Positions 22,376 through 44,683 of a stretch of 64,000 bases of DNA are shown in pieces (within the stretch, counting starts at the first letter, position 1; each line of letters starts with the position of its first letter). The translations under genes and the position numbers were made by a program. The notes beneath the pieces are model-generated. The model worked only from the letters and a program-made list of their open reading frames with translations. It was not told the DNA's origin and made no database searches. The stretch comes from an uncultured Fidelibacterota bacterium (GTDB taxonomy: Bacteria > Fidelibacterota > Marinisomatia > Marinisomatales > UBA1611): the NCBI GenBank assembly GCA_913040915.1, contig CAJWHW010000002.1, positions 22,129 to 86,128 of the forward strand, given 5' to 3'.

Positions 22376-22382
22376 TTTTTTA

Positions 22383-23030
22383 TCATGATTTAAGTAAACC
22401 AGAGAATACATTAAAATTTGTGACAGTATCTCTGATATTTTTAAAAAATAATTTAATTTTTAGGTGATCTTTTATGCCTGGTGATTTTTCTAAACCACTA
22501 TTTAAGTCAATGGCATCAGGTTTCATTAATTTAATTGCCTTCAAAACATTTTCTGAATTAAGTCCGCCAGAAAGGATAATCGGTTTATCTGTTGGATTTA
22601 TAAAAAGTGACCAGTCAAAAGTTTCTCCTGTGCCTCCATATTTATCCTTTGAAAAAGTATCAAATAAAAATGCATCTACATTATAATCATTCATAATTGA
22701 AAAGCTACCTGAATTTCTAATATGAAGTGCTTTTATTACAGGTAATTGAAACTGTTCACAGAATTCCGGTGATTCATCTCCGTGTAATTGAATTATGTTC
22801 AAGGGCACATTTTGGACTGCTTCTAAAATGAATGGCATAGACTGATCAACAAAAACCCCCAGTTTTATTGTTTTATCAGGTAAATGATCTGAAATAAATT
22901 TTGCTTTTTTGATAGTGATAGCACGGGGACTCTTATCATAAAAAATAAATCCAATTGCTGCTGCACCAAATTCTAATGCGCATTGAGCATCTGCAATATT
23001 TGTAATCCCACATACCTTTGTTGCCATCAT
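22383..23030 (-). CDS. trpF: phosphoribosylanthranilate isomerase
   Basis: 215 aa. It contains [19 protein letters not shown] and IQLHGDE. Confidence 0.9.
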
Positions 23031-23788: not shown

Positions 23789-24780
23789 TTTGTCATTTGT
23801 GATAACACATTTAGTGCCGCACCTGAATCAATAGACTCAGATGCTTTTAATAATCCTTCTTTTAGGGTTTTTGCCTTATTACCTACAACGATCCCAGCAG
23901 CTGCATTAATTAAAACAATATCACGTTTGGGCCCCATTTCACCATTTAAAATGTTTTTAATAATCTTCGCATTTTCTTTTGGGTTGTAACCCATCAGATC
24001 ATCTAAAGAAGCTTGATTTAAACCTAGCTTTCTAGAATCAAATTCGATTGTTGAAACATGCCCACCATTTTGCATTTGGCTGATTTTTGTGGTAGTTGTT
24101 GTAGAGATTTCATCTAAACCATCACGGCCGTGAAAAACCATTACATCTGTAGAACCTAATGCTTTTAATACGTTTGTTTGAACCTCAGTCAAATCAGGAT
24201 GAAAGATGCCCATAGCTTGAGCTTTAACATTTGCAGGATTACACAGGGGACCAAGAATGTTGAAAACTGTTCGTGTGGCTAAAGCAGTTCTTGCTCCAAT
24301 AGCATGTTTCATAGCTGGGTGGTATGCCGGTGCGAACATAAAACCCAATCTATAATTTTCTATATCCTCTAAAAATTTATCTACAGATTTGTCAATAATA
24401 ATTCCTAATTCTTGAAGAACATCGGCCGATCCTGATTTAGATGTCATGGAACGGTTCCCATGTTTTGCAACACGCACACCTGTCCCAGCTACAACAAATG
24501 TTGCTGCAGTGGAGATATTGAATGTACCCGATGCATCACCGCCAGTACCACACATATCAATGGCTGGTGTACTTAGTGGAACTGTAACCATTTTTTCTCT
24601 CATGGCCTTTGCAAAGCCTGTGATTTCATCCACTGTTTCACCTTTAGCCCGAAGCGCTACTAAAAATCCAGAAATTTGTGCATCATTATATTCCCCTGAC
24701 ATAATGGATAGCATTACTCTAAAAGCTTCATCTTTAGAAAGATTTTGTTTATCTAATAATTGTTCTAATATTTGTTTCAT
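23785..24780 (-). CDS. trpD: anthranilate phosphoribosyltransferase
   Basis: 331 aa. It contains DMCGTGGDASGTFNIST, KHGNRSMTSKSGSADVL and NILGPLCNP. Confidence 0.95.
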   Translation of the reverse strand: MKQILEQLLDKQNLSKDEAFRVMLSIMSGEYNDAQISGFLVALRAKGETVDEITGFAKAMREKMVTVPLSTPAIDMCGTGGDASGTFNISTAATFVVAGTGVRVAKHGNRSMTSKSGSADVLQELGIIIDKSVDKFLEDIENYRLGFMFAPAYHPAMKHAIGARTALATRTVFNILGPLCNPANVKAQAMGIFHPDLTEVQTNVLKALGSTDVMVFHGRDGLDEISTTTTTKISQMQNGGHVSTIEFDSRKLGLNQASLDDLMGYNPKENAKIIKNILNGEMGPKRDIVLINAAAGIVVGNKAKTLKEGLLKASESIDSGAALNVLSQMTK

Positions 24781-24834
24781 TGTAAGCTCAAAGACTCTAG
24801 TTATAACTGTAGTTATATTTTTGTTTTAACAAGA

Positions 24835-25404
24835 TCAACATTTTATTGTTAAGAAGTTTTTTATTATTTGTAAACCATTCTCAGTTGCTATGGATTCAGG
24901 ATGAAATTGTAATCCATAGACTGGATCATTTTTGTGTTCTATGGCCATAATTAGGCCATTGTTTAATTCTGCTGTTATTATTAATTCTTTAGGGAGTAAT
25001 TTTTTGTCAGCTACTAATGAATGATAGCGAGTGGCCATAAAAGATCCTGAAAATCCTTTGAATAGAGCAGATCCATTATGTTGAATCTTTGCAGTCTTAC
25101 CATGAACAATCTCCGATGAATGAACTACTGTGCCACCATAAGCAATTGTAATTGCTTGATGGCCAAGACAGACTCCAAGTATAGGAATTTCTTTCCCATA
25201 TTTTTTAATAATATTTACAGAATGACCCGCATTTTCAGGCCTCCCGGGTCCAGGAGAGATGACAATATGAGTTGGATCCCAATGAACAATATCATCCAAT
25301 TCGAATTGATTATTTCGTATCACTTTCACATCTGGATTAAGAACACCGATGTATTGTACCAGATTAAATGTGAAAGAGTCGTAATTATCAATAACTAAGA
25401 TCAT
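24835..25404 (-). CDS. trpG: anthranilate synthase component II (glutamine amidotransferase)
   Basis: 189 aa. It contains MILVIDNYDSFTFNLVQY, GVCLGHQ and LQFHPES. Confidence 0.93.
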   Translation of the reverse strand: MILVIDNYDSFTFNLVQYIGVLNPDVKVIRNNQFELDDIVHWDPTHIVISPGPGRPENAGHSVNIIKKYGKEIPILGVCLGHQAITIAYGGTVVHSSEIVHGKTAKIQHNGSALFKGFSGSFMATRYHSLVADKKLLPKELIITAELNNGLIMAIEHKNDPVYGLQFHPESIATENGLQIIKNFLTIKC

Positions 25405-26885
25405 GCTGCTAATCCATCCTCTGCGAAGTCAATTGCTGACATGATAGCCTTGGCCTTACTTACCGTTTCCTCAAATTCTTTGGTGGGGTCTGAATCATAG
25501 ACAATGCCTGCACCGGACTGAAAATGGACGGATCCATTTTTCATAATCATAGTCCTTATAGCTATACAAGTATTTACATTGCCGGTAAAATCAAAAAACC
25601 CGACAGCACCTGAATAAATATTTCGTCGTTCAGGTTCTAGATCTTTGATTATTTCCATAGCTCGAATTTTGGGAGCACCTGTAACCGTACCAGCAGGGAA
25701 ACCACTCATAAGCGCATCAAATGGATCTTTATGTTCGGCAAGCTTTCCTTTTACATCAGAAACAATATGCATAACGTGGGAATAATTTTCGATTACCATA
25801 TTCTCGGGAATGGTAATTGACCCAAATTCTGAGACACGGCCCACGTCATTTCTGCCCAGATCTAAAAGCATAAGGTGTTCTGCTCTTTCCTTTTCATCAT
25901 TTAATAGTTCGTGCGCTAATTTTTTATCTTCATCAACTGAGTCCCCACGTTTACGCGTGCCTGCAATAGGGCGGATTTCCACATTGCCATCTTCTACTTT
26001 TACTAAGAGTTCAGGTGATGCACCAATAATATCAAAATCATTAATCTTTAAATGGAACATATATGGTGATGGATTAATGTTTCTCAAAGCTCGGTAAAGG
26101 GTTGTAGCCTCTACATCGGTGGCCCTTTCGAACCGCTGACTGAGAACCAGTTGAAAAATATCACCGTTGACAATATACTCTTTAGCTTTAGCCACTGCTT
26201 TCTCAAATTTATTTTGATCAAAATTTGAAATTACTTTACTTTTTTTTACTTGTATTGGCGTCTGATAATCCACATTAGTATGTAGTGATTCGCCAATTAT
26301 ATCTATCTTTGAATGTGCTTTATTAAATTGGAATTCCAAATCTGCTGAATCATCAATATTAACATTTGAGATTACTAATGCAGACCCTTTTAAGTGATCG
26401 AAAGCAATTATGTTTTCAAATAACATAAAGACTGAATCAGGTATATTTAATGCTGAATCTGTGTGAATTGGAATATCTTCGAACCAGGTGATAGTCTCAT
26501 AGCCAAGGTAACCAACTAGTCCACCGGTAAAAGATGGAATCCCGGGAAACTTCATCATTTTATATTGAGATTGAATATCGCGAAGTAAATCTAAAAATGG
26601 TGTTTCCACTTTATTTTTGTTACCATTTTTATAGATAATTGTTTGTCCATTTTTGTGTGTCAATATTTGTTTTGGATTAATTCCTACATAAGAATATCTG
26701 GTATATTGATTCCCTTTTTCTACAGATTCTAGTATGAAAGCATATTTAGCCTTTTGAGATAAATGTATCCATGCTGCCACGGGCGTAAGAAGATCTGCCA
26801 GGATACGTTTATATACAGGTATAGTTCGGTTCCCTTGGGAAACCAAATCTTGAAATTCTTTGTAGGTCAGTTGAGTTTTATCCAT
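25401..26885 (-). CDS. trpE: anthranilate synthase component I
   Basis: It contains LADLLTPVAAW, PSPYMF and GAVGFFDF-GN. I prefer the ATG at 26885 (MDKTQL). The ORF-track TTG at 26894 lies inside the terminator T-tract. Confidence 0.95.
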   Translation of the reverse strand: MDKTQLTYKEFQDLVSQGNRTIPVYKRILADLLTPVAAWIHLSQKAKYAFILESVEKGNQYTRYSYVGINPKQILTHKNGQTIIYKNGNKNKVETPFLDLLRDIQSQYKMMKFPGIPSFTGGLVGYLGYETITWFEDIPIHTDSALNIPDSVFMLFENIIAFDHLKGSALVISNVNIDDSADLEFQFNKAHSKIDIIGESLHTNVDYQTPIQVKKSKVISNFDQNKFEKAVAKAKEYIVNGDIFQLVLSQRFERATDVEATTLYRALRNINPSPYMFHLKINDFDIIGASPELLVKVEDGNVEIRPIAGTRKRGDSVDEDKKLAHELLNDEKERAEHLMLLDLGRNDVGRVSEFGSITIPENMVIENYSHVMHIVSDVKGKLAEHKDPFDALMSGFPAGTVTGAPKIRAMEIIKDLEPERRNIYSGAVGFFDFTGNVNTCIAIRTMIMKNGSVHFQSGAGIVYDSDPTKEFEETVSKAKAIMSAIDFAEDGLAA

Positions 26886-26892
26886 TTTGCGC

Positions 26893-26921
26893 AAAAAAAA
26901 ACCCCGATCATTGCCGGGGTT
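26893..26921 (-). terminator. intrinsic terminator of the aromatic (trp-type) attenuator, 7 nt upstream of the trpE ATG
   Basis: The minus-strand RNA reads AACCCCGG-CAAUGA-UCGGGG followed by U9 (plus-strand A-run 26893-26901). The stem has five G-C pairs and one G-U pair, and the two flanking A residues can pair with the first two U residues. Confidence 0.8.
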
Positions 26922-26955
26922 AAAGTGCAGTCAATATATACAGGTATCCCTGGGA

Positions 26956-27024
26956 CTACGTAACCCCTTTAAGGCTAAAAAACCAATACCAGTTGTAATA
27001 ATTTTCTATGTTTTTGTAATTCAT
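26956..27024 (-). CDS. aromatic-codon leader peptide (22 aa) of the trpE...aroQ operon
   Basis: The minus strand reads ATG AAT TAC AAA AAC ATA GAA AAT TAT TAC AAC TGG TAT TGG TTT TTT AGC CTT AAA GGG GTT ACG TAG, which is MNYKNIENYYNWYWFFSLKGVT. Seven of eight consecutive codons are Tyr, Trp or Phe. Its last codons carry GGGGUUA (26967-26961), which is complementary to the 5' terminator arm UAACCCC (26922-26916). Confidence 0.7.
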   Translation of the reverse strand: MNYKNIENYYNWYWFFSLKGVT

Positions 27025-27064
27025 AGCATCAAATATTAAGGAAAAGTGAGAACTGTATCCAACA

Positions 27065-27337
27065 TTATTTATTTTTTTGAAATTTTTTTGAAATTTTATA
27101 AACAGGATCAAAAATTGAAGCAATATCTTCTTTATTTAGCTTTCCATCCAATTTATTGGCAAGATGCTCTATAATTTCTTTTTCTCGATTTGGATCATGG
27201 ATTTTAATATTATTGGATGCTTTGATTTCACCAATCTGTTTTGAAATAGAAAAACGCTTTAAAAGAAAATCTAATATTTGATTATCTAAATAATCAATTT
27301 TGTCTCGCAGTGAATCAATTTTCTCTTTTGGGTTCAT
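27065..27337 (-). CDS. chorismate mutase, monofunctional AroQ class
   Basis: 90 aa, all-helical. LRDKIDYLDNQILDFLLKRFSISKQIGEIK is typical of an AroQ chorismate mutase. Confidence 0.85.
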   Translation of the reverse strand: MNPKEKIDSLRDKIDYLDNQILDFLLKRFSISKQIGEIKASNNIKIHDPNREKEIIEHLANKLDGKLNKEDIASIFDPVYKISKKFQKNK

Positions 27338-27394
27338 GAATTAAACTACACAAATCATAAATTGGTTAGAAAGTGAAATAATCAAAATATTTAA

Positions 27395-28537
27395 TTAAGT
27401 TTGTTCCAATGCCTGTTTGAGGTCAGCAATAATATCTTTGTGGTTTTCTATCCCCACGGAAATTCGCACTAAACCATCTGTGAGGCCTCGGGCATCTCGT
27501 TCTTTTTTCGGGACATCCGCATGGGTCATGGTAGCAGGGTGAGTGATCATGGTTTCCACAGAACCCAAACTTTCTGCTAACTTTGCCAATTGAACAGAAT
27601 TCATCACAATTTTTGCTGCGGGGATGCCGCCAATTAATTCAAAAGAAATCATACCACTATATCCGGACATTTGTTTTTTGGCAATAGCGTGGCAAGGATG
27701 AGAAGGGAGTCCAGGATATGCTACCCGGAATACTTTAGGATGAGCCTCTAAATATTCCGCTACTGCTTGGGCATTTGAAAAATGCTTTTTCATTCGTATA
27801 TCCAATGTTTTAACACCGAGAATGGTGAGCCAGCAATCAAAGGGCCCGGGAACGGCGCCAATGGTTTTTTGGATGAATTTCAGTTTTTCAAACAAGTCTT
27901 CCCTATTGGTAATTACTACGCCCCCAATCAATTGGTTATGGCCGCTTAAATATTTGGTAGTACTGTGCATCACCAAATCTGCACCGAATTCCATTGGTCG
28001 GAGGAAAACAGGTGTAGCAAAGGTAGAATCCACTCCAAATAAGATATTATGTTTTTTAGCAATTTCACCAACAGCTTCAAGATCTGTGATCTTTAATAAT
28101 GGGTTTGTGGGTGTTTCTATCCAAATTAATTTTGTTTTGGGTTGAATTGCATTTTCAACATTTGTAGGAATGGAAGAATCTACATACGTGAAATGTAAAT
28201 CATAATTCACTAAGATCTGGTTAAAATACCGGGACACGCCACCGTAAACATCATCGGAACAAATGATATGGTCGCCTGCTTTCAACAATTTTAAAACACC
28301 ATCCACAGCGGACATACCACTAGCAAAGGCAATTCCAAATTGTCCTCCATCAAGCTCGGCTAAAATTTCTTCCATAACCTGTCTTGTGGGGTTGGATGAA
28401 CGGGTATAGTCAAATCCTTTATCTTGGCCAACTTCTTCCAAAACGTAAGTGGCTGTTTGGTAGACAGGCGGTAGGATAGACCCAGTAGTAGGATCAGGTT
28501 CTGTACCTGCCTGGACAACTTTTGTATCAAATTTCAT
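27395..28537 (-). CDS. Cys/Met-metabolism PLP enzyme (cystathionine gamma-synthase, beta-lyase or gamma-lyase family)
   Basis: 380 aa. It contains TKVVQAG..PDPTTGSILPPVYQTATY and the lysine motif HSTTKYLSGH. The exact reaction cannot be assigned from sequence alone. Confidence 0.85.
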   Translation of the reverse strand: MKFDTKVVQAGTEPDPTTGSILPPVYQTATYVLEEVGQDKGFDYTRSSNPTRQVMEEILAELDGGQFGIAFASGMSAVDGVLKLLKAGDHIICSDDVYGGVSRYFNQILVNYDLHFTYVDSSIPTNVENAIQPKTKLIWIETPTNPLLKITDLEAVGEIAKKHNILFGVDSTFATPVFLRPMEFGADLVMHSTTKYLSGHNQLIGGVVITNREDLFEKLKFIQKTIGAVPGPFDCWLTILGVKTLDIRMKKHFSNAQAVAEYLEAHPKVFRVAYPGLPSHPCHAIAKKQMSGYSGMISFELIGGIPAAKIVMNSVQLAKLAESLGSVETMITHPATMTHADVPKKERDARGLTDGLVRISVGIENHKDIIADLKQALEQT

Positions 28538-28560
28538 AAAAGATCCTGTGTTCTAATTCA

Positions 28561-29853
28561 TTATTTTGCCAGTAAATATTCCTTTAGGTCAGAAAATTTT
28601 TTGGACATTTTTATGGATTTTTTTTCTTTTTTTATAGTAATCTGCAATGAATCTGGCAGGGATGTTTTAAATCCAGTAATGGGTTCAATCACATCTGCAA
28701 ATTTCCCCGGGTGGGCTGTGGATAAAACAACTCCCGTTGATATTGAATTTGTTTTCTCTCTATATTTTTTTAATCCCAAGACACCAACTGAAGTGTGTGG
28801 ATCAATCAAATAGCCAAATTCATCTTGAATACTTTTAATAGATTCTTTTGTCTCTTCATCAGGGAAGCTCCAACTGGCAATATCCATTTTTACTTGCCTT
28901 ATATTATCGTGAAATAAGTCTATTATTCGATCCAAATTACTGGGCACACCAACATCCATTGCATTAGATATTGTTTGTACAGCATCTTGATGTTGAATTA
29001 TTCCACTGCTTAAAAAGTGTGGGAAAGTATCATTTGCATTTGTGGAAGCTATAAATTTCTCAACTGGAACTCCCATACGGTTTGCGAAAAGCCCCCCGGT
29101 TAAATTCCCAAAGTTTCCACTAGGAATGCTAAATATTATTGGCTTGTATTTACTGCAGTGTTTCCAAGCCCAGGCATAATAAACCGATTGAGGCAATAGT
29201 CTAGCTATATTAATTGAATTAGCAGAACTTAATGATAAACTACTACGCAAATCGATATCTTGAAAAGAAGCTTTAACTAATCGTTGGCAATCATCAAAGG
29301 AGCCATCTATTTCTAAAGCAGTAATATTGCCACCCAAAGTTGTAATTTGTTTTTCCTGAATGGCACTTACTCGATTGGAAGGATAAAGAATAATAACATC
29401 AATGCCATCTACATTAAAAAAACCGTTTGCAACGGCACTTCCAGTATCACCAGATGTAGCTACTAATATCTTTAACCTATCACCATTATTTTCAAGAAAA
29501 TAAGACATCGTTTGAGCCATAAACCGTGCAGCAAAATCCTTGAAGGCGAGTGTCGGCCCGTGAAATAACTCCAATATAGAATCGGTTTTATTTAATTCTT
29601 TAATTTGCATGGGAAAATTAAATGCCAATTCACAAATATCAGTTAATTGAGCATGTGTTAAATCACCTTCTGTGAATGGATAAATCATACCAACAGCTAA
29701 TTCGGGGTAACTAAAATCAGATTTAAAAAAGTCTATCCCTAATTGAGGAATAGTTGCAGGCATATAAAGTCCACCATCCGGCGCTAATCCATGGAACAAT
29801 GCTTCCTTGAATCCGACTGAAATAGCCTTATTATTTGTACTGTAAAAGCGCAA
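28561..29853 (-). CDS. thrC: threonine synthase
   Basis: 430 aa. It contains GLAPDGGLYMP, HGPTLAFKDFA and ATSGDTGSA. Confidence 0.93.
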   Translation of the reverse strand: MRFYSTNNKAISVGFKEALFHGLAPDGGLYMPATIPQLGIDFFKSDFSYPELAVGMIYPFTEGDLTHAQLTDICELAFNFPMQIKELNKTDSILELFHGPTLAFKDFAARFMAQTMSYFLENNGDRLKILVATSGDTGSAVANGFFNVDGIDVIILYPSNRVSAIQEKQITTLGGNITALEIDGSFDDCQRLVKASFQDIDLRSSLSLSSANSINIARLLPQSVYYAWAWKHCSKYKPIIFSIPSGNFGNLTGGLFANRMGVPVEKFIASTNANDTFPHFLSSGIIQHQDAVQTISNAMDVGVPSNLDRIIDLFHDNIRQVKMDIASWSFPDEETKESIKSIQDEFGYLIDPHTSVGVLGLKKYREKTNSISTGVVLSTAHPGKFADVIEPITGFKTSLPDSLQITIKKEKKSIKMSKKFSDLKEYLLAK

Positions 29854-29856
29854 GTA

Positions 29857-30792
29857 TCAGTCCAAAATTTCCGGTGGTTTTGTATGAATTGGTGTACTAT
29901 AAGCAGTACTTTCAAGTCCAGCGTTTTTAAATGTATTCACCATTATTAGTCCTATTTTCTCCGCAGTCTCTATTGAATCTGATAAAGCGAAAATAGCAGG
30001 CCCAGAGCCAGAAATACCGCAGCCGATTGCCCCGGCATCTATTGCGGATTGTCGAACAGATTTGTAACCGGGTATAAGTTCTGCTCGAACAGGTTCAGCA
30101 AAAAGATCCACCATTGAACGGCTCAAAAGATCAAAATCAGATTTATGAAGGCCTAAAGTAAAACCTGCCAAGTTTCCGGCCTGCTCAACTGCAGATTTTA
30201 AAGAAACTCGTTTAGGTAGCATACGCCGTGCGTCAAGAGTATTCACGCTAAAATCAGGTAATACTGCTGTACTGAATAAATTTTTTGGAACTGGTAAATT
30301 CAGAACATCTAAAGGTTCATAACTGCGAATCAGGATGATTCCGCCGAAAAGAGCAGGTGCAATATTATCTGCATGTAATCCACCCGATGCAACTGCTTCT
30401 CCTGCCATACCATGAGCTAACAATTCACTATTTTTGAATGGATTATTCAATAATTCATTTAAACCCACAACAGCTGCAGCTGCACTGGCAGAACTAGAAC
30501 CCAACCCGCTTCCTGGTGGAATACCTTTTTCAATATGAACCTTAAATCCTTGATTACTACCCAAAGTATCAAGAAAAGATAATATAGCTTTACCTGCAGT
30601 ATTATTTTCAGGATTAACAGGGATTGATTCATATTTTATACCCGAAATTGAAATTTCTATTACCGATTTTTCATGTTTTTTAATTGTAACAATATCTCCC
30701 GGTTTTGTAATGGCGTAACCAATACAATCAAAACCGCAAGATACGTTAGCGACTGAAGCCGTTGCTTGGACTCGAATTGAATTATTGAACAT
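29857..30792 (-). CDS. thrB: homoserine kinase
   Basis: It contains the GHMP kinase motif PPGSGLGSSSASAAA. I prefer the ATG at 30792 (MFNNSIRVQATASVANVSCGFD). The ORF-track start at 30876 would run about 95 nt into asd. Confidence 0.9.
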   Translation of the reverse strand: MFNNSIRVQATASVANVSCGFDCIGYAITKPGDIVTIKKHEKSVIEISISGIKYESIPVNPENNTAGKAILSFLDTLGSNQGFKVHIEKGIPPGSGLGSSSASAAAAVVGLNELLNNPFKNSELLAHGMAGEAVASGGLHADNIAPALFGGIILIRSYEPLDVLNLPVPKNLFSTAVLPDFSVNTLDARRMLPKRVSLKSAVEQAGNLAGFTLGLHKSDFDLLSRSMVDLFAEPVRAELIPGYKSVRQSAIDAGAIGCGISGSGPAIFALSDSIETAEKIGLIMVNTFKNAGLESTAYSTPIHTKPPEILD

Positions 30793-31888
30793 GGATATAT
30801 CCTTTTTGAACAAGTAGTTCTGCCATAAGAATGGCACCACCAGCGGCACCTCGAACTGTATTGTGCGACAATCCAATAAATCGAATATTAAAAAACATAT
30901 CCTCTGTTATTCGCCCAACTGTTACAGTCATGCCATTTCCCAAATCTCGATCTAATTTAGGTTGGGGACGATCTATTTCATCCAAAACAATAATAGGAAT
31001 TTTTGGGGCTGATGGGAAATGCATAGCTTGTGGTTCTCCTATAAATGAAGATAAAATTAATTTGAACTCATCTATAGTAGGGGCAATATCAACAAATCCA
31101 ATATGTACTACAGCAGTATGTCCATCTATTACTGGTACACGTGTACATACTGCATTTATAGCTAATCCCTTGAATTGCTCAATACCGCTTTCCGTTACTT
31201 CACCAAATATTTTTAATGGTTCTTTTTCTGTCTTTTCTTCTTCTCCACCAATATAGGGTACAACATTATCTTTTAAATCTGGATTGGTTAATGCTTTATA
31301 GCCAGCACCTGACAATGCTTGAAGGGTGGTCACTTGTACGCGATCCACCGGAAACCCTGCTTGTTTTAATGCTTCTAAAACAATAATATATGATTGAATT
31401 GAACAATTAGGTTTAACTGCTACAAAACCAGAGTTTGGTAAATTTCGAATCATCTGTTGGATAGGAATCACCTCTGCATGATGAGGATTTATTTCAGGAA
31501 TGATCATAGGTACATCACGGGTTTGACGATTAGCAGAACTAGTGGAAATAACAGCGTATCCTTTTTTTGCATACCCAAATTCAAAATCACGTGTATCCTG
31601 TTTTTTTTGTAAGTCTAACGCAGAAAATACACAGACTACATCCTCAGGTATTGATTCAAAATCATTCACATCCCGAACAATCAAGTTAGCAATTGAATCA
31701 GGAATCTGTGTATCTATAGCCCATTTCTCACTAGTTGCTTCCCTGTAAGTTTTTCCGGAAGAATGCTTGGATGCAGCAACGTCTATAACGTCAAACCATG
31801 GGTGGTTTTCCAATAATTTTAAGAAGTTTTGACCGACCATTCCAGTAGCACCTAAAACACTTACTTTAATATTTTTTTTTAGTAACAT
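30782..31888 (-). CDS. asd: aspartate-semialdehyde dehydrogenase
   Basis: 368 aa. It contains VLGATGMVGQ and the active-site region KPNCSIQ. It overlaps the thrA stop by 10 nt. Confidence 0.9.
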   Translation of the reverse strand: MLLKKNIKVSVLGATGMVGQNFLKLLENHPWFDVIDVAASKHSSGKTYREATSEKWAIDTQIPDSIANLIVRDVNDFESIPEDVVCVFSALDLQKKQDTRDFEFGYAKKGYAVISTSSANRQTRDVPMIIPEINPHHAEVIPIQQMIRNLPNSGFVAVKPNCSIQSYIIVLEALKQAGFPVDRVQVTTLQALSGAGYKALTNPDLKDNVVPYIGGEEEKTEKEPLKIFGEVTESGIEQFKGLAINAVCTRVPVIDGHTAVVHIGFVDIAPTIDEFKLILSSFIGEPQAMHFPSAPKIPIIVLDEIDRPQPKLDRDLGNGMTVTVGRITEDMFFNIRFIGLSHNTVRGAAGGAILMAELLVQKGYIHVQ

Positions 31889-34263
31889 TTTAAAATATCT
31901 CCTAATACACCAGCAGCAGTGACTTCAGCTCCGGCACCATGTCCTTTTATAACCATGGGGGTATCTTTATATCTTTTAGTCGTAAACATAATAAAGTTTT
32001 CACGTCCATTTTGATGATAAAAAGGGTTTTTAATTCCCACTGCTTTCAATTTCACTGTTACATTTTGCCCATCCCAGGTGGCAATATATCGTAACGCCTT
32101 ATCCTCTCTAGAAGCTGAAATATACATGTTTAAAAATTGGTCATCATATTTGGATAATTGCTCTAAAAACTCATCAATGGAAAATGCCGGATCCATATTT
32201 TCTGGAATTAAGCTTTGAATAGATACATCATCAAACTCTAATTGTGCACCAGTCTCTCGGGCCAAAATGAGAATTTTTCTTCCCACATCCACACCATTCA
32301 AGTCATCTCTTGGGTCTGGTTCTGTGTACCCGTTTTCCTGTGCATATTTTACCAACTTACTAAATGCAATTGAACCATCAAATCGACTGAATAAATAGCT
32401 TAGCGTCCCAGACATAATTCCTTCAATTTTTTCAACTGTATCACCTGTTGCCAATAAAGTTTGTAATGTTTCAACAATAGGGAGACCTGCGCCAACATTT
32501 GTTTCATATTTAAATTGAGAACCGGCAGCATTTGAATTTTCACGAATTAAATCATAATAATTCTGATTCATGGAATTGGCCAGTTTGCTAGCAGATACAA
32601 CAGAAATTCCTTTTTTTAAAATGTTTGCTATTTTTTTTGCGATTATAGGTGATGATGTTACATCCACAAATACGGGGTTAAGAGACTGAGCTGCATAAGA
32701 AATAAATGATTCTAAATCGACTGTATCACCACTTGCTAATTCTTCTACATAATTTTGGGAATCTAATCCATTTGGATTAATAATCATTTTTTGACTATTT
32801 ATTATACCGCATATATTTATGGAATTATTATCCTGAATTAACTTTATTAAATCTGAGCCAACCAACCCAACCCCAGCAATAAATACATTTATAATAGCAT
32901 TGTTTGAAAAAATATATTGATGCAAAGATCGAATGGCTGATTTGACTTCATCATTTTTAATAATAAAGGATATATTTCTTTCCGAAGATCCTTGAGCAAT
33001 AGCAACCACATTCACATTTTTTTCTCCAAGAACGGAAAATAGTTTCCCGGAAATTCCAGGTGTATGGCGCATCCCCTCGCCTACAACAGCAATGAGAGAA
33101 AGATCATTTTCAATATTAATAGTATCTATAAAATGGTTTTTCAGTTCAAACAAAAATTCTTTCTTCAAAAGTGATTCAGCTAGATCAACTTCTTTAGGTT
33201 GGATAGCAAAACAAATGGAATGCTCGCTAAACACTTGAGATACAAGAATAATATTTATTTTCTTTTTGGCTAGTGCATCAAATACACGTCCAATAACTCC
33301 AAAACGTCCCACCATACCGGCTCCTTGGAATCGGATTAAGGAAACATTATACAAAGATGAGATACCCACGGCAAAATGGTCATCCCTTGCACGGTCCTGT
33401 GTAATAGCCGTTCCTGGATTATCCGGTTCAAATGTATTTTTAATACGGATCGGAATAGATTTATATAAAGCAGGAATCATAGTGGGTGGGAAAATAACTT
33501 TTGCCCCGGCATGAGCCAATTCCATGGCTTCTTCATAAGTAATATGAGAAATGGTTTTTGCATCAAAAACCACATTGGGATCGGCAGACAAAATACCGTT
33601 TACATCAGTCCAGATTTCTATTTCATTTACATCTAAAGCAGCGCCAAAAATGGATGCGGTATAGTCTGAACCGCTCCTTCCAAAAGTTGTTGTTTCTCCT
33701 AATTCAGTGGCACCAATGAATCCAGTAATTATCCTTGTTTTTGATTCATCTTTCCATTCATTACGAATATTATTGTAAGATTTTTGATAATGAACAAATG
33801 CATTTCCGAAATGATCATCTGTTAAAATAACCTTTCGCGCATCCAAATATGTTGCATTTATTCCTTTTTCGATACATACTTCCGTAATAATTATTGCAGA
33901 TAATTGCTCACCAATACTTAGTGCTGCATCTTTTAATTGCAGTGTACATTTTTTCTTTTTGGCAATTGTACTTAATATAAGACATAATTCATTTTCTATT
34001 TCTTGGATAGTATTAAACAATAGTTCTTTTTCAAGATGAAGATCATGAATAGTTTTCCGATGCCTATCAAAAAACAATTGTAAATCATTATTATAATCAG
34101 CGTCCCGTTCTGCACATGAGATTAATTGAATGAGTTGATCCGTAATGCCACCAAACGCAGATACAACTACACCACATGGATGTTCAGATGAAATAAGCTG
34201 CACCACTTGCTCAATTCGTTGGGACGTTTTTACGGATGATCCGCCAAATTTGAGAATTTTCAT
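31879..34263 (-). CDS. thrA: bifunctional aspartokinase / homoserine dehydrogenase
   Basis: 794 aa. The N-terminus MKILKFGGSSV is an amino-acid kinase. Central ACT-like repeats are followed by a C-terminal homoserine dehydrogenase (GAGLPIVETL, TEPDPRDDLNG-DV). Confidence 0.93.
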   Translation of the reverse strand: MKILKFGGSSVKTSQRIEQVVQLISSEHPCGVVVSAFGGITDQLIQLISCAERDADYNNDLQLFFDRHRKTIHDLHLEKELLFNTIQEIENELCLILSTIAKKKKCTLQLKDAALSIGEQLSAIIITEVCIEKGINATYLDARKVILTDDHFGNAFVHYQKSYNNIRNEWKDESKTRIITGFIGATELGETTTFGRSGSDYTASIFGAALDVNEIEIWTDVNGILSADPNVVFDAKTISHITYEEAMELAHAGAKVIFPPTMIPALYKSIPIRIKNTFEPDNPGTAITQDRARDDHFAVGISSLYNVSLIRFQGAGMVGRFGVIGRVFDALAKKKINIILVSQVFSEHSICFAIQPKEVDLAESLLKKEFLFELKNHFIDTINIENDLSLIAVVGEGMRHTPGISGKLFSVLGEKNVNVVAIAQGSSERNISFIIKNDEVKSAIRSLHQYIFSNNAIINVFIAGVGLVGSDLIKLIQDNNSINICGIINSQKMIINPNGLDSQNYVEELASGDTVDLESFISYAAQSLNPVFVDVTSSPIIAKKIANILKKGISVVSASKLANSMNQNYYDLIRENSNAAGSQFKYETNVGAGLPIVETLQTLLATGDTVEKIEGIMSGTLSYLFSRFDGSIAFSKLVKYAQENGYTEPDPRDDLNGVDVGRKILILARETGAQLEFDDVSIQSLIPENMDPAFSIDEFLEQLSKYDDQFLNMYISASREDKALRYIATWDGQNVTVKLKAVGIKNPFYHQNGRENFIMFTTKRYKDTPMVIKGHGAGAEVTAAGVLGDILKCY

Positions 34264-34337
34264 TTTAATACTAATTAAATAGGTTTATCGTTAGTCGAAA
34301 TATTACGGTTAATAAAAGTTTTACATGCTAAAAAGTG

Positions 34338-34517
34338 CTAATTGGAAATCAAAATATTACCAAATTCCTTTAATGAGAATAGGTTCACAGCATGATCCGC
34401 ATTGTTGAATATATATGATGTTGAAGAAAAAATTCGGACTGCTCTAGCGTTTGTGCCTGCCATCGGTTCCTGCCTGGTATGGAACTGTAATTTATCAAAA
34501 TGATTATTATTGCACAT
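34338..34517 (-). CDS. possible 59-aa small ORF between the SAM riboswitch and thrA (uncertain)
   Basis: It falls below the ORF-track size cut-off. The minus strand reads AAGGAAAAATATCT-ATG TGC AAT AAT AAT..., which is MCNNNHFDKLQFHTRQEPMAGTNARAVRIFSSTSYIFNNADHAVNLFSLKEFGNILISN. It has an SD-like AAGGA 9 nt upstream. No homology recognised. Confidence 0.2.
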   Translation of the reverse strand: MCNNNHFDKLQFHTRQEPMAGTNARAVRIFSSTSYIFNNADHAVNLFSLKEFGNILISN

Positions 34518-34657
34518 AGATATTTTTCCTTATTTTGTGTTATTTATTGGTTTGTTACTAATATTTATGAATTAGTTATTCATAATAAATACAAAACGTA
34601 ATTGATAGCTTGTTGGGATAATATGTTAGAGGGCAAGAGACATTACAGCAGTATCTG

Positions 34658-34770
34658 TCTTATCAGTCTTCTAAAAAACTCGAAGCAGGAATTAGCACCT
34701 TGAACCGCATTGTACGGAGATGGTTGCTAAGGTATCTTAGGGCCTGATCCCTCCACCTTTCTGGATAAAA
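34658..34770 (-). promoter_or_regulatory. SAM-I (S-box) riboswitch
   Basis: The minus strand reads UUUUAUCCAGAAAGGUGGAGGGAUCAGGCCCUAAGAUACCUUAGCAACCAUCUCCGUACAAUGCGGUUCAAGGUGCUAAUUCCUGCUUCGAGUUUUUUAGAAGACUGAUAAGA. It matches the S-box core elements AUC-AGA-GG-GGAGGGA--GGCCC--GA--CC--GCAACC...AAGGUGCUAAUUCC-GC...GAUAAG. The P1 halves UUAUC(C)AG and CUGAUAA pair with each other. Confidence 0.85.
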
Positions 34771-34964
34771 TCCGGTACTGATCTGTCAAAAAGCATAAAA
34801 AACTTCTTTTAAATGTTAAATATGAAAATAAAATAATGCAAGATAACATTAATATATTTAACTATACTCCATCATTTTCTATAATTTTTTTATAAATAAA
34901 AGGAATATGATTTATATTTGAATGTTGCCCTTTATAAGAATTTGTTATAAACTTTTAGCCAATT

Positions 34965-35048
34965 ATGAACATACGACGACGCCATAACCATCATCTTAAC
35001 ACTTTGATTAATAACAATAATAATATGAGTGGGGGCGAAGCTTTGTAA
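34965..35048 (+). CDS. Asn-codon leader peptide (27 aa) upstream of asnB
   Basis: The sequence ATG AAC ATA CGA CGA CGC CAT AAC CAT CAT CTT AAC ACT TTG ATT AAT AAC AAT AAT AAT ATG AGT GGG GGC GAA GCT TTG TAA encodes MNIRRRHNHHLNTLINNNNNMSGGEAL. It has 8 Asn, five of them consecutive (35010-35024). Confidence 0.6.
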   Translation: MNIRRRHNHHLNTLINNNNNMSGGEAL

Positions 35049-35073
35049 CCATAAGGTTAAGCTTTAATAAAAA

Positions 35074-35108
35074 CCTCCAGGGATTTTAATTCATGGGGGT
35101 TTTTTTTT
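35074..35108 (+). terminator. intrinsic terminator of the candidate asnB attenuator
   Basis: CCTCCA (35074-35079) pairs with TGGGGG (35094-35099) in a 6-bp stem with one G-U pair and a 14-nt loop. It is followed directly by T9 (35100-35108), 23 nt before the asnB ATG. Confidence 0.7.
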
Positions 35109-35131
35109 ATATCAAATAAAAGGAAAAAATT

Positions 35132-36721
35132 ATGTGTGGCATATTTTTATATAAAGGTAGAAAACAAGATTGGAATTCATTGGAACCTGATATTAAACGG
35201 ATTGGTTATCGCGGCCCAGATAATACACACCATGAAATGATTGGCAATGATATATTATTAGCTTTCCATCGATTAGCTATCATGGGCACAAGTGAAATGG
35301 GCGATCAACCGATGAAACATCCCAATGATGCTTCGCTCACTCTGATCTGTAATGGTGAAATTTATAATTATAAAAATTTAGCTAAAAAATATAGCTTTAA
35401 TTTGAAGACAGGCTCTGATTGTGAAATTATTTTATTCATGTTTAAACAATTTGGTATTCAAAGAACTGTAAAGGAATTAGATGGCGTTTTCATGTTCGTA
35501 TTATATGAAGCAAATACTGGTCTACTTTTTGCTGGCCGGGATCCCATGGGTGTTCGTCCGGGGTTTATCGGTCGAAATGGAGATGAGATTATGATTGCAT
35601 CAGAAGCAAAATCCATGGTGAATCATTCTTCAAGTATTATTCCATTTCCCCCAGGGCATTGGTGGTGTTCGAACCTTTCAGATATATTCAATCCTTATTT
35701 TCTTTATAATAAAATCAAAATTCAAGAAAACACCGAAGAAGATATTTGTAATAAAATCCAGTTATTATTAACAGCTGCAGTTAAGAAACGGCTTATGACA
35801 GAACGTGATATTGGGTGTTTATTATCTGGTGGTTTGGATTCGAGTTTAATTTGTGCTCTTGTGAATAAGTATTATGAAGGACCAAAACTAAATACATTTT
35901 CTATTGGACTTGTAGGGAGCATTGACCTTGAATATGCACAAGATGTGTCCTCTCATTTGAAATCAAAACACCACCAGATAGAAGTATCTCAAAATGAGTT
36001 TTTAGATGCAATTGAAACTGTGATTTATAATATTGAATCTTATGATACTACTACAGTCAGAGCCAGTGTAGGCAATTACCTCGTTTCAAAATATATTTCA
36101 GATAATTCTGATTGCAAGGTGATTTTTAACGGTGATGGCAGTGATGAGGTATGTTGTGGATATGTATATTTAAGGAATGCACCATCACCAGTTGATTTGC
36201 AAAAAGAAAATGAAAGGCTGGTTGAAGAGATTCATTATTTTGATGTGCTGCGCTCAGACCGCAGTATTAGTTCTAATGGTTTGGAAGCACGGACGCCTTT
36301 TTTGGATAAAACATTTGTGAAGTATTATTTATCAATTCCTGCGGAATTAAAGTTATTTGATGGGGCACAAAGATTAGAAAAATATTTATTAAGAAAAGCT
36401 TTTGATGATCAGGGACTTTTACCAGATAAAGTTTTATGGCGTCGGAAATGTGCTTTTTCAGATGGTGTAAGTTCGCAGAATAATTCCTGGCATCATATTA
36501 TCCAATCATTTGTAGACCAAAAAATTAGTGATGAAGAATTTCAGCGAGAAAGCACTAAGATCACACATTGCACTCCTCAATTAAAAGAGAGTTATTACTA
36601 TCGTAAAGTATTCAATAGCTTCTTTGAGAATCATGAGAATTTAATTCCTCATTTCTGGATGCCTAAGTGGTCCAATACGATAGACCCTTCAGCTAGAGAA
36701 TTAAGTGGGTACAAAGAATAA
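35132..36721 (+). CDS. asnB: asparagine synthetase (glutamine-hydrolysing)
   Basis: 529 aa. The N-terminal nucleophile MCGI is present, with the PP-loop LLSGGLDSS. An SD, AAAGGA, lies 7 nt upstream. Confidence 0.93.
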   Translation: MCGIFLYKGRKQDWNSLEPDIKRIGYRGPDNTHHEMIGNDILLAFHRLAIMGTSEMGDQPMKHPNDASLTLICNGEIYNYKNLAKKYSFNLKTGSDCEIILFMFKQFGIQRTVKELDGVFMFVLYEANTGLLFAGRDPMGVRPGFIGRNGDEIMIASEAKSMVNHSSSIIPFPPGHWWCSNLSDIFNPYFLYNKIKIQENTEEDICNKIQLLLTAAVKKRLMTERDIGCLLSGGLDSSLICALVNKYYEGPKLNTFSIGLVGSIDLEYAQDVSSHLKSKHHQIEVSQNEFLDAIETVIYNIESYDTTTVRASVGNYLVSKYISDNSDCKVIFNGDGSDEVCCGYVYLRNAPSPVDLQKENERLVEEIHYFDVLRSDRSISSNGLEARTPFLDKTFVKYYLSIPAELKLFDGAQRLEKYLLRKAFDDQGLLPDKVLWRRKCAFSDGVSSQNNSWHHIIQSFVDQKISDEEFQRESTKITHCTPQLKESYYYRKVFNSFFENHENLIPHFWMPKWSNTIDPSARELSGYKE

Positions 36722-36816
36722 ATTATTTAATTATATTAATAATAAAATAAAATATATTTATTATTTGTTAAATTAAATTAAATGAATAATATTATAGACA
36801 GGAAATAATTAAAATA

Positions 36817-36984
36817 ATGTACGATACTGCAATAAATAAAATTAGCATTACGGGGATGAAGCCAATTGGGCTTTGTGACCGCGAAATTCTATGCCAAATG
36901 GTTACTATATTGCAATCCATTATTCGGTACCTAAGTATATCAATTTTGGTACTTATTATTACCTTCGCCGTTTTGATCGCCTAG
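36817..36984 (+). CDS. Ile/Leu/Val-rich short ORF upstream of ilvB (candidate ilv leader peptide or small membrane peptide)
   Basis: 55 codons, below the ORF-track cut-off: MYDTAINKISITGMKPIGLCDREILCQMVTILQSIIRYLSISILVLIITFAVLIA. From the internal ATG at 36898 it gives a 28-aa peptide with 16 Ile/Leu/Val residues, including ISILVLII. No downstream intrinsic terminator was found. Confidence 0.3.
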   Translation: MYDTAINKISITGMKPIGLCDREILCQMVTILQSIIRYLSISILVLIITFAVLIA

Positions 36985-37217
36985 TTAAAACAAATACATT
37001 CAGGTGATTCAAACGGTGAAAAAACTCTCCCCGATTAATTAGTCCATCCCTGAAGTATCTAATCTGGCAATTCGAACTGGTAAAATAGTTTGCGTAGTAT
37101 TTATTGTTGCGTTGAAAAAGGGACTTGATGAGTTTAGATCAAATAAAGTAGGATTTGAACATGCGTCCCACAGAAGCCCTTTGCGGGCTGCGAGCACAGT
37201 ATTAAAGTAGTGGAGAC

Positions 37218-38945
37218 ATGAAAATGGAAAAACGAACTCTAACAGGAGCAGAAATTATTTGGGAATGTGTGACTAAAGAAGATGTGGGTGTGGTTTTTGG
37301 ATATCCAGGAGGTGCAATCCTACCGGCATATGATGCTTTGAATAATTATCGGGATAAAATTCACCATGTGTTAGTGCGCCATGAACAGGGCGCGACACAT
37401 ATGGCTGATGGGTATGCACGTGCTAGTGGAAATGTGGGGGTAGCTATAGCGACATCAGGACCAGGAGCAACCAATATGGTCACAGGTTTGGCTACTGCAA
37501 AATTAGATTCTGTCCCCATTGTATGTATTACAGGTCAAGTTCCCCGGACTGCCATTGGATCAGATGCGTTTCAAGAAGTAGATATTTATGGTACAGTTTT
37601 TCCGGTGACAAAACATAGTTATTTAGTTATGGATATAAAAGACTTGGCCCCAACTATTAAGGAAGCATTTGCAGTGGCACGTTCCGGTAGGCCTGGTCCG
37701 GTTCTGATTGATATCCCTAAAGATATCCAAACTGAAACAATAGAATTTATTTATCCCAGTGAGCCTGTGAGATTGCCGGGAAATAATAAACTACAAATCT
37801 CCACTGAAAAACAAATTAACGATGCAATCAACTTAATAAATAATGCAAAAAAACCAGTTATTCTTGCAGGACATGGTATTCTTCTATCTGGCGCTTCTCG
37901 AGAAGTGATAAAATTGGCAGAAACTGCATCAATTCCCATTGGCTGGACTTTATTGGGTTCAGGAAGTGTCCCTGCCAGCCACCCACTGAATATGGGTATG
38001 ATGGGCATGCATGGCGAATTTGCAGTGAATAATGCGATCCAAGATGCGGATCTATTAATTGCCTGTGGAATGCGTTTTGATGATCGTGTTACAGGTAATG
38101 TAAAAACCTATTCACCCAATTCAAAAAAAATTCACATTGAAATTGATCCATCAGAAATCAATAAGAATGTCCCTGCCGATGTAGGTATTGCCGGAGATCT
38201 ACGAACTATTTTACTTCAACTTCTTCCGTTGGTAAAACAACGGAAAAATGAAGACTGGCTTAAAATAATTTCTTCTTGGCAATCTGAATCTATGGAAAGA
38301 GATATCATCAATGTCCAAACAGATACCCTCTACGGGGCCCAAGTGATTCGTGATATCTGGAAAGAGACCAGGGGTGATGCGCTTATTGTAACAGATGTAG
38401 GCCAGCACCAAATGCTTGAAGCACAGTATTATGCTCATGAAGAGCCCAACACATTATTAACCTCTGGTGGTTTGGGGACGATGGGTTTCAGTTTACCGGC
38501 GGCAATAGGTGCTAGTTTCACAAATAGAAATAAAGATATTTGGGTTATTGTCGGAGATGGTAGTATCCAGATGACAATTACTGAATTGGCTACTGCAGTA
38601 CAAGAGAATGCTAATATAAAAATTGCCATAATTAATAATGGTTACTTGGGCATGGTTCGTCAGTGGCAGCAGCTATTTTATGATGCCCGTTATGCTGAAA
38701 CACCCATTAGTAGCCCCGATTATTTAAAGATTTCAGAGGCGTATGGTCTGCCAGGCCATAGGGTACAAACCCGTGCTGAGATTCCTAATGTAATTAATAT
38801 GGCAAAAAAAAATGAAGGCCCCGTCCTTATAGAGTTTGTAGTGGAGCAACATGATATGGTTTATCCTATGGTGCCAGCTGGCGCTGATTTGAATGCTATG
38901 ATCAACAGGCCGAAAAATAAGCAATTTCAAGAAATAGAAGAATAA
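37218..38945 (+). CDS. ilvB: acetolactate synthase (acetohydroxyacid synthase) large subunit
   Basis: 575 aa. It contains GAEIIWECV..VFGYPGGAILPAYDAL and the ThDP motif GDGSIQMTITELAT. An ATG at 37224 is an alternative start with better spacing from GGAG. Confidence 0.95.
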   Translation: MKMEKRTLTGAEIIWECVTKEDVGVVFGYPGGAILPAYDALNNYRDKIHHVLVRHEQGATHMADGYARASGNVGVAIATSGPGATNMVTGLATAKLDSVPIVCITGQVPRTAIGSDAFQEVDIYGTVFPVTKHSYLVMDIKDLAPTIKEAFAVARSGRPGPVLIDIPKDIQTETIEFIYPSEPVRLPGNNKLQISTEKQINDAINLINNAKKPVILAGHGILLSGASREVIKLAETASIPIGWTLLGSGSVPASHPLNMGMMGMHGEFAVNNAIQDADLLIACGMRFDDRVTGNVKTYSPNSKKIHIEIDPSEINKNVPADVGIAGDLRTILLQLLPLVKQRKNEDWLKIISSWQSESMERDIINVQTDTLYGAQVIRDIWKETRGDALIVTDVGQHQMLEAQYYAHEEPNTLLTSGGLGTMGFSLPAAIGASFTNRNKDIWVIVGDGSIQMTITELATAVQENANIKIAIINNGYLGMVRQWQQLFYDARYAETPISSPDYLKISEAYGLPGHRVQTRAEIPNVINMAKKNEGPVLIEFVVEQHDMVYPMVPAGADLNAMINRPKNKQFQEIEE

Positions 38946-38960
38946 AGGAATTAATAAGTA

Positions 38961-39512
38961 ATGAAGCAAACCTTAATCGTATTTGTTCAGGATGAGCCTG
39001 GCGTATTAAATAGGATCTCCAGTCATATCCGACGGCGAAACTTTAATATTGAAAGTCTGGTGGCAGGCCGGACCGAAAAGAAAGGTATTACCAGAATGAC
39101 CGTTGTGTTAAATGAACCTGACCAAACCAAACAACGGATTGTAGTCAATAGTTTAAAACAACTTATTGATGTATATGATGTAATTGATGCGACCAAAATT
39201 GAAAGCCATATACGAGAATATGCATTGGTTAAAGTTGCCATAAAGAAAAATGATTTGGCAGATGTGGAAAAAGTAGTTAAAAGTATTCATGGTAATATTA
39301 TTGAAAGTAGTGATGATGCTACCATCTTTGAATTGACGGGTTATGAAGAAGAAGTAGAATTAGCAATTTCGCAACTTGAGCGATATAACGTATTAGAAAT
39401 TGTTCGTTCAGGGAAAGTAGCCATGGCTTCCGGTAATTACGCGGAAAATCAGCCTGAGTTAAACAAGACAGAACCAAATTGGTCAACCCGTAGAATTCTG
39501 GAATCCTTTTAA
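38961..39512 (+). CDS. ilvN: acetolactate synthase small (regulatory) subunit
   Basis: 183 aa with the ACT domain LIVFVQDEPGVLNRISSHIRRRNFNIESL. Confidence 0.92.
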   Translation: MKQTLIVFVQDEPGVLNRISSHIRRRNFNIESLVAGRTEKKGITRMTVVLNEPDQTKQRIVVNSLKQLIDVYDVIDATKIESHIREYALVKVAIKKNDLADVEKVVKSIHGNIIESSDDATIFELTGYEEEVELAISQLERYNVLEIVRSGKVAMASGNYAENQPELNKTEPNWSTRRILESF

Positions 39513-39544
39513 CAAAAGCTTTGAATTAAATCTTTGGAGACAAA

Positions 39545-40588: not shown

Positions 40589-40595
40589 TCATATT

Positions 40596-43288: not shown

Positions 43289-43290
43289 TT

Positions 43291-44682: not shown

Positions 44683-44683
44683 A

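Follow-up and report, generated by a model that had tools for sequence, protein, structure and literature searches.

How are neighbouring operons for amino-acid synthesis controlled in a bacterium that has been seen only through metagenomes? The question is raised by a stretch of 64,000 nucleotides from an uncultured Fidelibacterota bacterium (contig CAJWHW010000002.1, positions 22,129 to 86,128 of the forward strand), which is called the window throughout. An original prediction made on this DNA held that four adjacent transcription units each begin with a different RNA-level sensor, namely an aromatic-codon leader, a SAM-I (S-adenosylmethionine) riboswitch, an asparagine-codon (Asn) leader and an open reading frame (ORF) rich in isoleucine, leucine and valine (ILV) codons. 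All four elements are present at the places where they had been put and are conserved in relatives, and the idea that each pathway block has its own cis-acting RNA-level sensor is supported. We consider it probable that the island consists of operons of the SAR406 group which are placed under ribosome-sensing leader ORFs and one SAM-I riboswitch, and which have been remodelled by three deletions; on the comparison with related loci, three of the four sensors have been re-wired by deletions in this genome.

The protein encoded by thrA of the window is 88-91% identical to proteins on metagenome-assembled-genome contigs of Candidatus Neomarinimicrobiota (Marinimicrobia, SAR406), and the gene order is kept. 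The Marinimicrobia are abundant and uncultured; to our knowledge their gene regulation is essentially unknown and none of the leader systems given here has been described in the phylum. The related loci used for comparison carry L-numbers (L001, L036, L101 and so on), and the relatives of asnB among them are metagenome loci. The pathway blocks, whose gene assignments were upheld by NCBIfam and Pfam scans of the window ORFs, are the following.

12589-26885, minus strand: aromatic supraoperon of 16 trp/phe/tyr/aro genes, trpE, G, D, C, F, B, A, pheA, tyrA, class II DAHP (3-deoxy-D-arabino-heptulosonate 7-phosphate) synthase, aroA, aroE, aroC, aroK, aroB and aroQ
27065-34263, minus strand: thrA, asd, thrB, thrC, a Cys/Met pyridoxal-phosphate (PLP) enzyme (cystathionine gamma-synthase-like) and a small chorismate mutase
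35132-36721, plus strand: asnB, glutamine-hydrolysing asparagine synthase
37218-46944, plus strand: ilvB, ilvN, ilvC, leuB, leuA, leuC, leuD and cimA

Common design of the aromatic and asparagine leaders

Judged from their sequences, the aromatic leader upstream of trpE and the Asn leader upstream of asnB are compact ribosome-dependent transcription attenuators of one common design. Four elements are shared by both: a G-run in the last codons of the leader ORF (element A), a hairpin at the stop codon (element B), a C-run which forms the 5′ arm of the terminator (element C), and the terminator 3′ arm with its U-tract (element D). The complete transcript folds to B plus the C:D terminator, and the transcript cut before D folds to an A:C helix enclosing B. 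Antiterminator and terminator are thus computationally predicted to be mutually exclusive in both leaders. The compact architecture that had been proposed for the two clear attenuators, with the antiterminator 5′ strand in the last codons and the terminator adjoining the gene start, was described correctly.

A two-state variant of attenuation is what this design reads as. RNA polymerase would transcribe a short ORF carrying the cognate codon run (YYNWYWFF in the aromatic leader, NNNNN before asnB). A ribosome stalled at the hungry codons would leave A and B free, the A:C helix and B would form the antiterminator before D is made, and transcription would read through into the operon; a ribosome which reaches the stop codon would cover A and the 5′ side of B, C would pair with D, and transcription would stop 7-23 nt before the start codon. 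In the main clades of leaders there is no separate 1:2 pause or protector helix of the E. coli trp type, so that read-through would be expected of a leader which is not translated; in some Asn clades the codon run is followed by an extra small hairpin. Codon-dependent read-through at both leaders is what we infer from these predicted folds.

Aromatic leader upstream of trpE

26956-27024, minus strand: aromatic (Trp/Tyr/Phe) leader ORF, encoding MNYKNIENYYNWYWFFSLKGVT up to its stop codon, conserved in relatives
27034-27062, minus strand: promoter-like element, -35 TTGGAT (27062-27057), 17-nt spacer, -10 TTAATA (27039-27034)
26961-26967, minus strand: element A (antiterminator 5′ strand), GGGGUUA in the last codons, pairing with UAACCCC at 26916-26922
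26927-26959, minus strand: element B, hairpin nested inside the antiterminator and beginning in the stop codon, seen in all relatives
26893-26922, minus strand: intrinsic terminator, stem 26921-26900 and U9 26901-26893, its 5′ arm being element C

The aromatic leader recurs in about 10 relatives, most of which share the core Y(Y/F)xWYWFF..(E/K)GV(S/T/L) followed by the stop codon, and L075 has a divergent aromatic-rich variant. Its terminator is an 8-bp G+C-rich hairpin followed by U9, which ends 7 nt before the ATG of trpE (26885). The two strands of the A:C helix have undergone a compensatory double change, GGGGUUA:UAACCCC in the window standing against GGGGUUU:AAACCCC in relatives, and transcripts cut before element D fold to A:C plus B in eight of the nine unique aromatic leaders. 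The promoter-like element ends 9 nt before the ATG of the leader; its hexamers are conserved in 10 relatives (-35 TTGG(T/A)T, -10 TTAAT(A/T)) and the spacer sequence varies, from which we infer that they form a promoter. The conserved element suggests that the aromatic leader is transcribed from a promoter of its own, into a leader mRNA that is nearly leaderless.

The hairpin with U9 before trpE may instead serve mainly to terminate the preceding operon from thrA to chorismate mutase, as the stop codon of chorismate mutase is 143 nt upstream of it on the same strand and the operon is followed by no second terminator. We regard this as improbable as the main role, because the stretch between the chorismate mutase gene and the hairpin holds the conserved promoter-like element and the aromatic-codon ORF, and the tail of the ORF is complementary to the terminator 5′ arm with a compensatory change. 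The roles of operon terminator and attenuator are also not mutually exclusive.

Asparagine leader upstream of asnB

34965-35048, plus strand: Asn leader ORF, encoding MNIRRRHNHHLNTLINNNNNMSGGEAL and ending ...NNNNNMSGGEAL
34995-35048, plus strand: Asn-leader-derived part of the ORF, LNTLINNNNNMSGGEAL up to the stop codon
35030-35035, plus strand: element A, UGGGGG in codons 22-24, pairing with CCUCCA at 35074-35079
35038-35064, plus strand: element B, stop-codon hairpin, AAGCU/UAACC...GGUUA/AGCUU
35074-35108, plus strand: intrinsic terminator, CCUCCAGGGA...UCAUGGGGG and U9, stem 35074-35099

Five consecutive Asn codons (NNNNN) are read at 35010-35024, and the terminator ends 23 nt before the ATG of asnB (35132). 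A terminator-like hairpin within 110 nt upstream of asnB was found in 47 of 73 related loci, 44 of which also have a run of at least three Asn codons, and three further asnB loci carry interrupted Asn runs. The asnB identity among these loci is 65-83%, so they are not near-identical copies. Across the relatives the run is 3 to 13 Asn codons long and the tails of the peptides belong to several types with no relation to one another (MSGGEAL, PKGVKAL, GMGYLV, GVGAPV, MNGVIAF), and the RNA elements are maintained throughout. All 31 intact unique Asn leaders (31/31) fold to the terminator when complete and to A:C plus B when truncated before D.

When the Asn leaders are aligned, 89-99% pairing is seen in the helices, against 22-70% with the register slid; hairpin B and the inner stem of the terminator hold most of the compensatory changes. 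From clade to clade, B has arms of wholly different sequence which remain complementary (AAGCUU/AAGCUU, CUCGUC/GACGAG, CUGUGU/ACACAG, CCCGU/ACGGG). The native A segments stabilise the pre-terminator fold by about 3.5-11 kcal/mol over random genomic replacements, of which 33% pair, and much more weakly. With a covariance model (R1) made from the Asn leaders, all asnB leaders are recovered with scores of 28-112 bits, the leader of the window scoring 103 bits; the His and aromatic leaders are matched weakly at 20-25 bits, which fits a shared architecture rather than close homology. In one locus (L064, 189-270) damage to the 3′ arm of the terminator, which reads CUUGG in place of CUUGGGGG, should make the asnB leader read through constitutively.

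Attenuators or chance

Some results weigh against the attenuator reading. The G:C core of the A:C helix and of the terminator is nearly invariant within the main Asn clade, so the covariation support comes mainly from comparisons between clades. When the leader tails were shuffled with their composition preserved, 71% could still pair with C. Under a strict definition of a hairpin followed by U7, the window has three sites, near the mean of 1.85 obtained in Markov simulations. The tail shuffling was abandoned as a control for the A:C helix because the tail is G-rich, and random genomic segments were used in its place.

The count of strict sites is also what favours the view that the combinations of ORF and hairpin are chance products of AT-rich DNA, the more so as one of the three strict sites (3014-3051) lies within the carA coding sequence. 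We find this explanation scarcely credible. Each of the two non-coding sites directly precedes a biosynthetic gene and follows an ORF in which the cognate codons abound, and the two are conserved over dozens of related loci, with variable run length and complementary changes of the arms. The frequency of such combinations, by which the original prediction had proposed to be judged, is uninformative when taken from the window count alone (3 against 1.85), and counting of sites was dropped as evidence; it is the conservation in relatives that contradicts chance. The reality of the leaders above chance accordingly rests on this conservation and not on site counts.

The site within carA (plus strand) is a strong terminator-like hairpin followed by U8 in the carA frame, where it makes up codons for 14 residues, and it is probably coincidental. 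If so, the two attenuators are the sole strong non-coding intrinsic terminators in the 64 kb.

Whether the design is typical of the lineage had been put as a question, and the comparison with relatives supports that it is, as the same aromatic, Asn and ILV leaders recur there and a His leader is found before hisG too.

Hybrid leader and loss of the his operon

34965-34994, plus strand: His-leader-derived part of the leader ORF, MNIRRRHNHH, with the his promoter region upstream of it, aligning to the His leaders of L101 and L036

The Asn-codon leader that had been proposed stands as an attenuator, and it needs to be corrected in one respect: it is a His::Asn hybrid whose promoter and first 10 codons come from a His leader. 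In relatives such as L101 and L036 the island begins with metY and its SAM-I riboswitch, which point away from the rest; these are followed by the His leader, hisG to hisI (about 7 kb), (proC), the Asn leader, asnB, the ILV leader, ilvD and ilvB, all in the opposite direction to metY. The His leader of these relatives (MNIRRHHNHHYPF... in L101, MNMRRRHNHHHHPF... in L036) precedes hisG and has its own terminator. In the window an in-frame junction at ...LNTLINNNNN links the promoter and first 10 codons of the His leader to the Asn leader (positions compared: window 34965-35048, L101 2402-2473, L036 1434-1507). The his operon has been lost from between the His and Asn leaders, leaving an in-frame His::Asn hybrid leader under the his promoter.

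No other copy of his, ilvD or full-length metY was found within the window. Misassembly was considered as a source of the odd junctions and was rejected, because the layout of the window recurs in at least seven independently assembled contigs from different samples at 99.9% identity.

A second His-leader promoter region with its first codons (MNIRRCHIKK and a stop) is found fused onto the start of proC in L036 (8862-8948), which suggests that the module of promoter and leader start has been duplicated and reused.

A wider proposal, which we put forward tentatively and consider rather doubtful, is that the Asn leader represents an undescribed attenuator class, and that the His, Asn and aromatic leaders belong to a single modular family of cassettes whose specificity is re-programmed by exchange of the codon run, with the His::Asn fusion as a living example. 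The parts of such a cassette are a promoter next to the start codon, the codon run, the G-run, the stop-codon hairpin and the C-run terminator. Were this proposal true, asnB would respond to both histidine and asparagine limitation.

SAM-I riboswitch, metY remnant and thrA

34657-34771, minus strand: SAM-I aptamer, Rfam RF00162, 73.8 bits against a gathering score of 44.4, full model (1-108)
34338-34517, minus strand: stub of metY (O-acetylhomoserine sulfhydrylase), an ORF of 59 codons of which the first 55 are homologous to metY

The SAM-I riboswitch that had been assigned to the thrA unit is a genuine aptamer, but it does not stand directly before thrA: it is 394 nt away with the decayed metY stub in between, and 75 nt separate the stub from thrA. 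The same aptamer is found before an intact metY in L101, L074, L083 and L063. As these arrangements indicate, the link between riboswitch and thrA is inherited from a unit in which the riboswitch controlled metY, and not designed. Most of metY has been lost, so that the riboswitch now precedes a decaying 59-codon stub and then the thrA operon.

SAM control of the thrA operon is our reading of this arrangement, and we consider it somewhat better than an even chance that the riboswitch still modulates the operon. The aptamer is fully intact at its 73.8 bits, it is co-directional with thrA and no terminator lies between them, and the thrA operon ends with a PLP enzyme of the methionine pathway. 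Independent lineages also link the aptamer to the homoserine branch, as it stands before metY-metA-thrA in L074 and L083, directly before thrA in L049, and in the L077 clade directly before an N-terminally truncated thrA which keeps the homoserine dehydrogenase part only; this suggests retention for function.

Several observations weigh against this and give real weight to the opposite view, to which we attach a substantial probability though below one half, that the riboswitch is an orphaned relic of metY and that thrA is transcribed from a proximal promoter of its own and does not respond to SAM. In the closest thrA relatives (L001, L003, L037, L040) the riboswitch is absent and thrA and the Asn leader are just 155 nt apart. 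The last 55 nt or so before thrA are common to the window and these riboswitch-less relatives, and a promoter specific to thrA may lie there. Residues conserved in metY have been replaced in the stub (HAGQ to HTRQ, VPIF to VRIF), and a codon comparison with L101 gives it 10 nonsynonymous and 8 synonymous differences, where asnB has 95 and 148, so that the ratio is relaxed in the stub. The aptamer is conserved only slightly above its surroundings, being 88% identical to the L101 aptamer which precedes intact metY, with flanks at 84-86%. In the expression platform no hairpin with a U-tract was found within the 140 nt up to the metY start; the 3′ strand of P1 pairs instead with a downstream UCUUAUCC-like segment, and this predicted helix may act on the metY start region, so the platform resembles a sequestering helix for that region more than a terminator.

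Two observations on the thrA genes of other loci were also made. In L077 (1094-1470) and in L069, L073, L075 and L076, thrA has been cut down to the end of the ACT region and the homoserine dehydrogenase, the aspartokinase part being gone, and the operon is without asd. In thrA loci of Flavobacteriia and Balneola (L013, L016, L018, L021, L028, L032) short Thr-rich ORFs occur within 300 nt upstream (for example ...TTITHTTPLG, MTTTTATTTP and ...TTSTTTTTPFGV, each before a stop codon), and thrA of the window has none. To judge from such ORFs, leader-peptide control may be common across the FCB (Fibrobacteres-Chlorobi-Bacteroidetes) group.

ILV-rich leader and ilvD remnant

36817-36984, plus strand: ILV-rich leader ORF of 55 codons, ending ...SISILVLIITFAVLIA and a stop codon, conserved upstream of ilvD
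36964-37020, plus strand: conserved hairpin (RNAalifold) whose 5′ arm is formed by the last ILV codons and the stop codon
37133-37210, plus strand: ilvD remnant, start ATG changed to TTT, about 25 N-terminal codons up to a stop

The ILV-rich ORF was rightly taken to be a conserved element, and it is likely to be a regulatory leader, with these corrections: no terminator follows it, its place in relatives is before ilvD, and ilvD is deleted here. Relatives carry an ilvD of 556 aa at the position of the remnant; its loss has placed the ILV leader in front of ilvB. The ORF is found upstream of ilvD in 20 related loci, where the ILV-rich C-terminus is kept and the N-terminal halves are unrelated between clades. 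ILV codons make up 10 of its last 15 codons. The RNAalifold hairpin has 16 pairs, six of them with compensatory changes, and on inspection a second hairpin, a small one, and C-rich sequence come after it.

Against a sensor role it must be counted that no U-tract terminator is present after the ILV leader in any clade. The ORF might then be a small hydrophobic membrane peptide, or be needed only for translational coupling into ilvD: its 48-55 codons are long for a leader, its C-terminus is like a transmembrane helix, no clear antiterminator follows it either, and long-range pairing is inconsistent between clades on inspection. We hold this to be unlikely, if not negligibly so, since in divergent clades the ORF is always the immediate upstream neighbour of the ilv operon, and the ILV run and the stop-codon RNA hairpin are kept, with compensatory changes, even where the N-terminal halves are unrelated. 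Its composition also resembles that of the E. coli ilvGMEDA and ilvBN leaders. If the ORF is a regulatory leader, as we prefer to read it, its output may lie with Rho, translational control or something else.

Two candidates for this output were tried and set aside. Long-range pairing from the end of the ORF to the ilvD-proximal region gave a perfect 8-mer in the L036 clade and nothing consistent in the L064 clade or the window (by inspection). A Rho-dependent output, considered for both the ILV leader and the SAM platform, is speculation, as the C>G skew of the downstream 60-mers reaches only the 94th-96th percentile of the window.

The ILV peptide of the window is nearer to that of the L064 clade (L064, L065, L112; ...IIQYLNILILVLIITNAVLVA) than to those of the closest thrA relatives L001 and L003 (...IDLLILVIIGLAVQIA), and these affinities hint at a mosaic ancestry along the island. 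In L005 (2148-3309), L049 (15414-16557), L066 and L112, two tandem ilvN-like small-subunit genes follow ilvB, where the window has one.

Window-wide scans and other genes

At gathering level a single Rfam family, SAM-I, is found in the 64 kb, and no T-box was matched at gathering level in the window nor at E<=5 in 26700-37400. Among the window ORFs of at least 100 aa, two Lrp/AsnC proteins (60.6-61.7 kb) are the sole amino-acid regulators that can be recognised, and six ORFs of this size have no family match; within this range the statement that the window encodes no dedicated amino-acid repressors besides these two holds. The broader suggestion of a streamlined genome in which cis-RNA control takes the place of repressors is a claim on the genome scale and goes beyond these 64 kb. 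A scan for sigma-70 promoters did no better than on shuffled sequences, and from it only the conserved element 5′ of the aromatic leader was retained.

The asd gene of the window (30782-31888, minus strand) belongs to the archaeal/eukaryotic-type family (asd_EA, PRK08664) and not to the common bacterial type. Two tandem overlapping ORFs of the glyceraldehyde-3-phosphate dehydrogenase family lie at 54478-55380 and 55317-56381 on the plus strand, and the first of them, which has kept little of its NAD-binding domain, could be a duplicate or a copy in decay.

Value of the findings

The analysis offers a testable regulatory logic for aromatic, Asn, His and branched-chain synthesis in Marinimicrobia, and it would add asparagine to the amino acids which are sensed by leader-peptide attenuation. 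It also gives a view of cis-regulators passing through genome reduction, with a hybrid leader that is still in frame and an intact riboswitch that now stands on a different operon. Such short leaders would escape standard annotation pipelines or be mis-annotated by them, and the Asn covariance model sets the Asn leaders clearly apart from background. The his, ilvD and metY deletions at the locus flag possible auxotrophies in a population which recurs across several ocean samples.

Comparison with known systems

The enterobacterial trp, his, pheA and thr attenuators are alike in having an ORF with regulatory codons, a terminator just before the first gene and an antiterminator which depends on the position of the ribosome. 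The leaders of the window differ from them in being two-state, without a 1:2 protector helix, and in having as antiterminator a long-range helix of G-run and C-run that encloses the stop-codon hairpin; the aromatic leader moreover mixes Trp, Tyr and Phe codons before a supraoperon of 16 genes, and the host belongs to the Marinimicrobia. Scores against the Rfam Trp_leader (RF00513; 20.7 bits against a gathering score of 41, E 2.1) and His_leader (RF00514; 24.4 bits against 49, E 1.7) are below threshold and give no membership.

The ILV-rich ORF is comparable to the leaders of E. coli ilvGMEDA (ilvL) and ilvBN (ivbL), which likewise have an Ile/Leu/Val-rich ORF directly upstream and an RNA structure starting from the end of the ORF, whereas the ORF of the window type has 48-55 codons and a stop-codon hairpin without a U-tract, with no terminator in any clade. 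The aptamer is a full-model match to SAM-I (S-box, RF00162), and metY (and metA) of the relatives is a classic S-box target; in the window this target is reduced to the 59-codon stub followed by thrA-asd-thrB-thrC, and no terminator-type platform is seen.

For attenuators outside Proteobacteria and Actinobacteria, the nearest comparison is with the His leader peptides upstream of hisS and hisZ in Bacilli, which were found through a search for premature terminators (Naville & Gautheret 2010, PMC2965389); they differ from the present leaders in phylum, genes and sequences, and the same paper reports no Asn leader. Neither Rfam nor the literature that could be searched, which did not include the 2010 survey of Lopatovskaya et al., yielded an Asn-codon leader for asnB. 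What is new here is the Asn leader, the hybrid leader and the host phylum, and the principle is the known leader-peptide attenuation of the enterobacterial trp/his/phe type.

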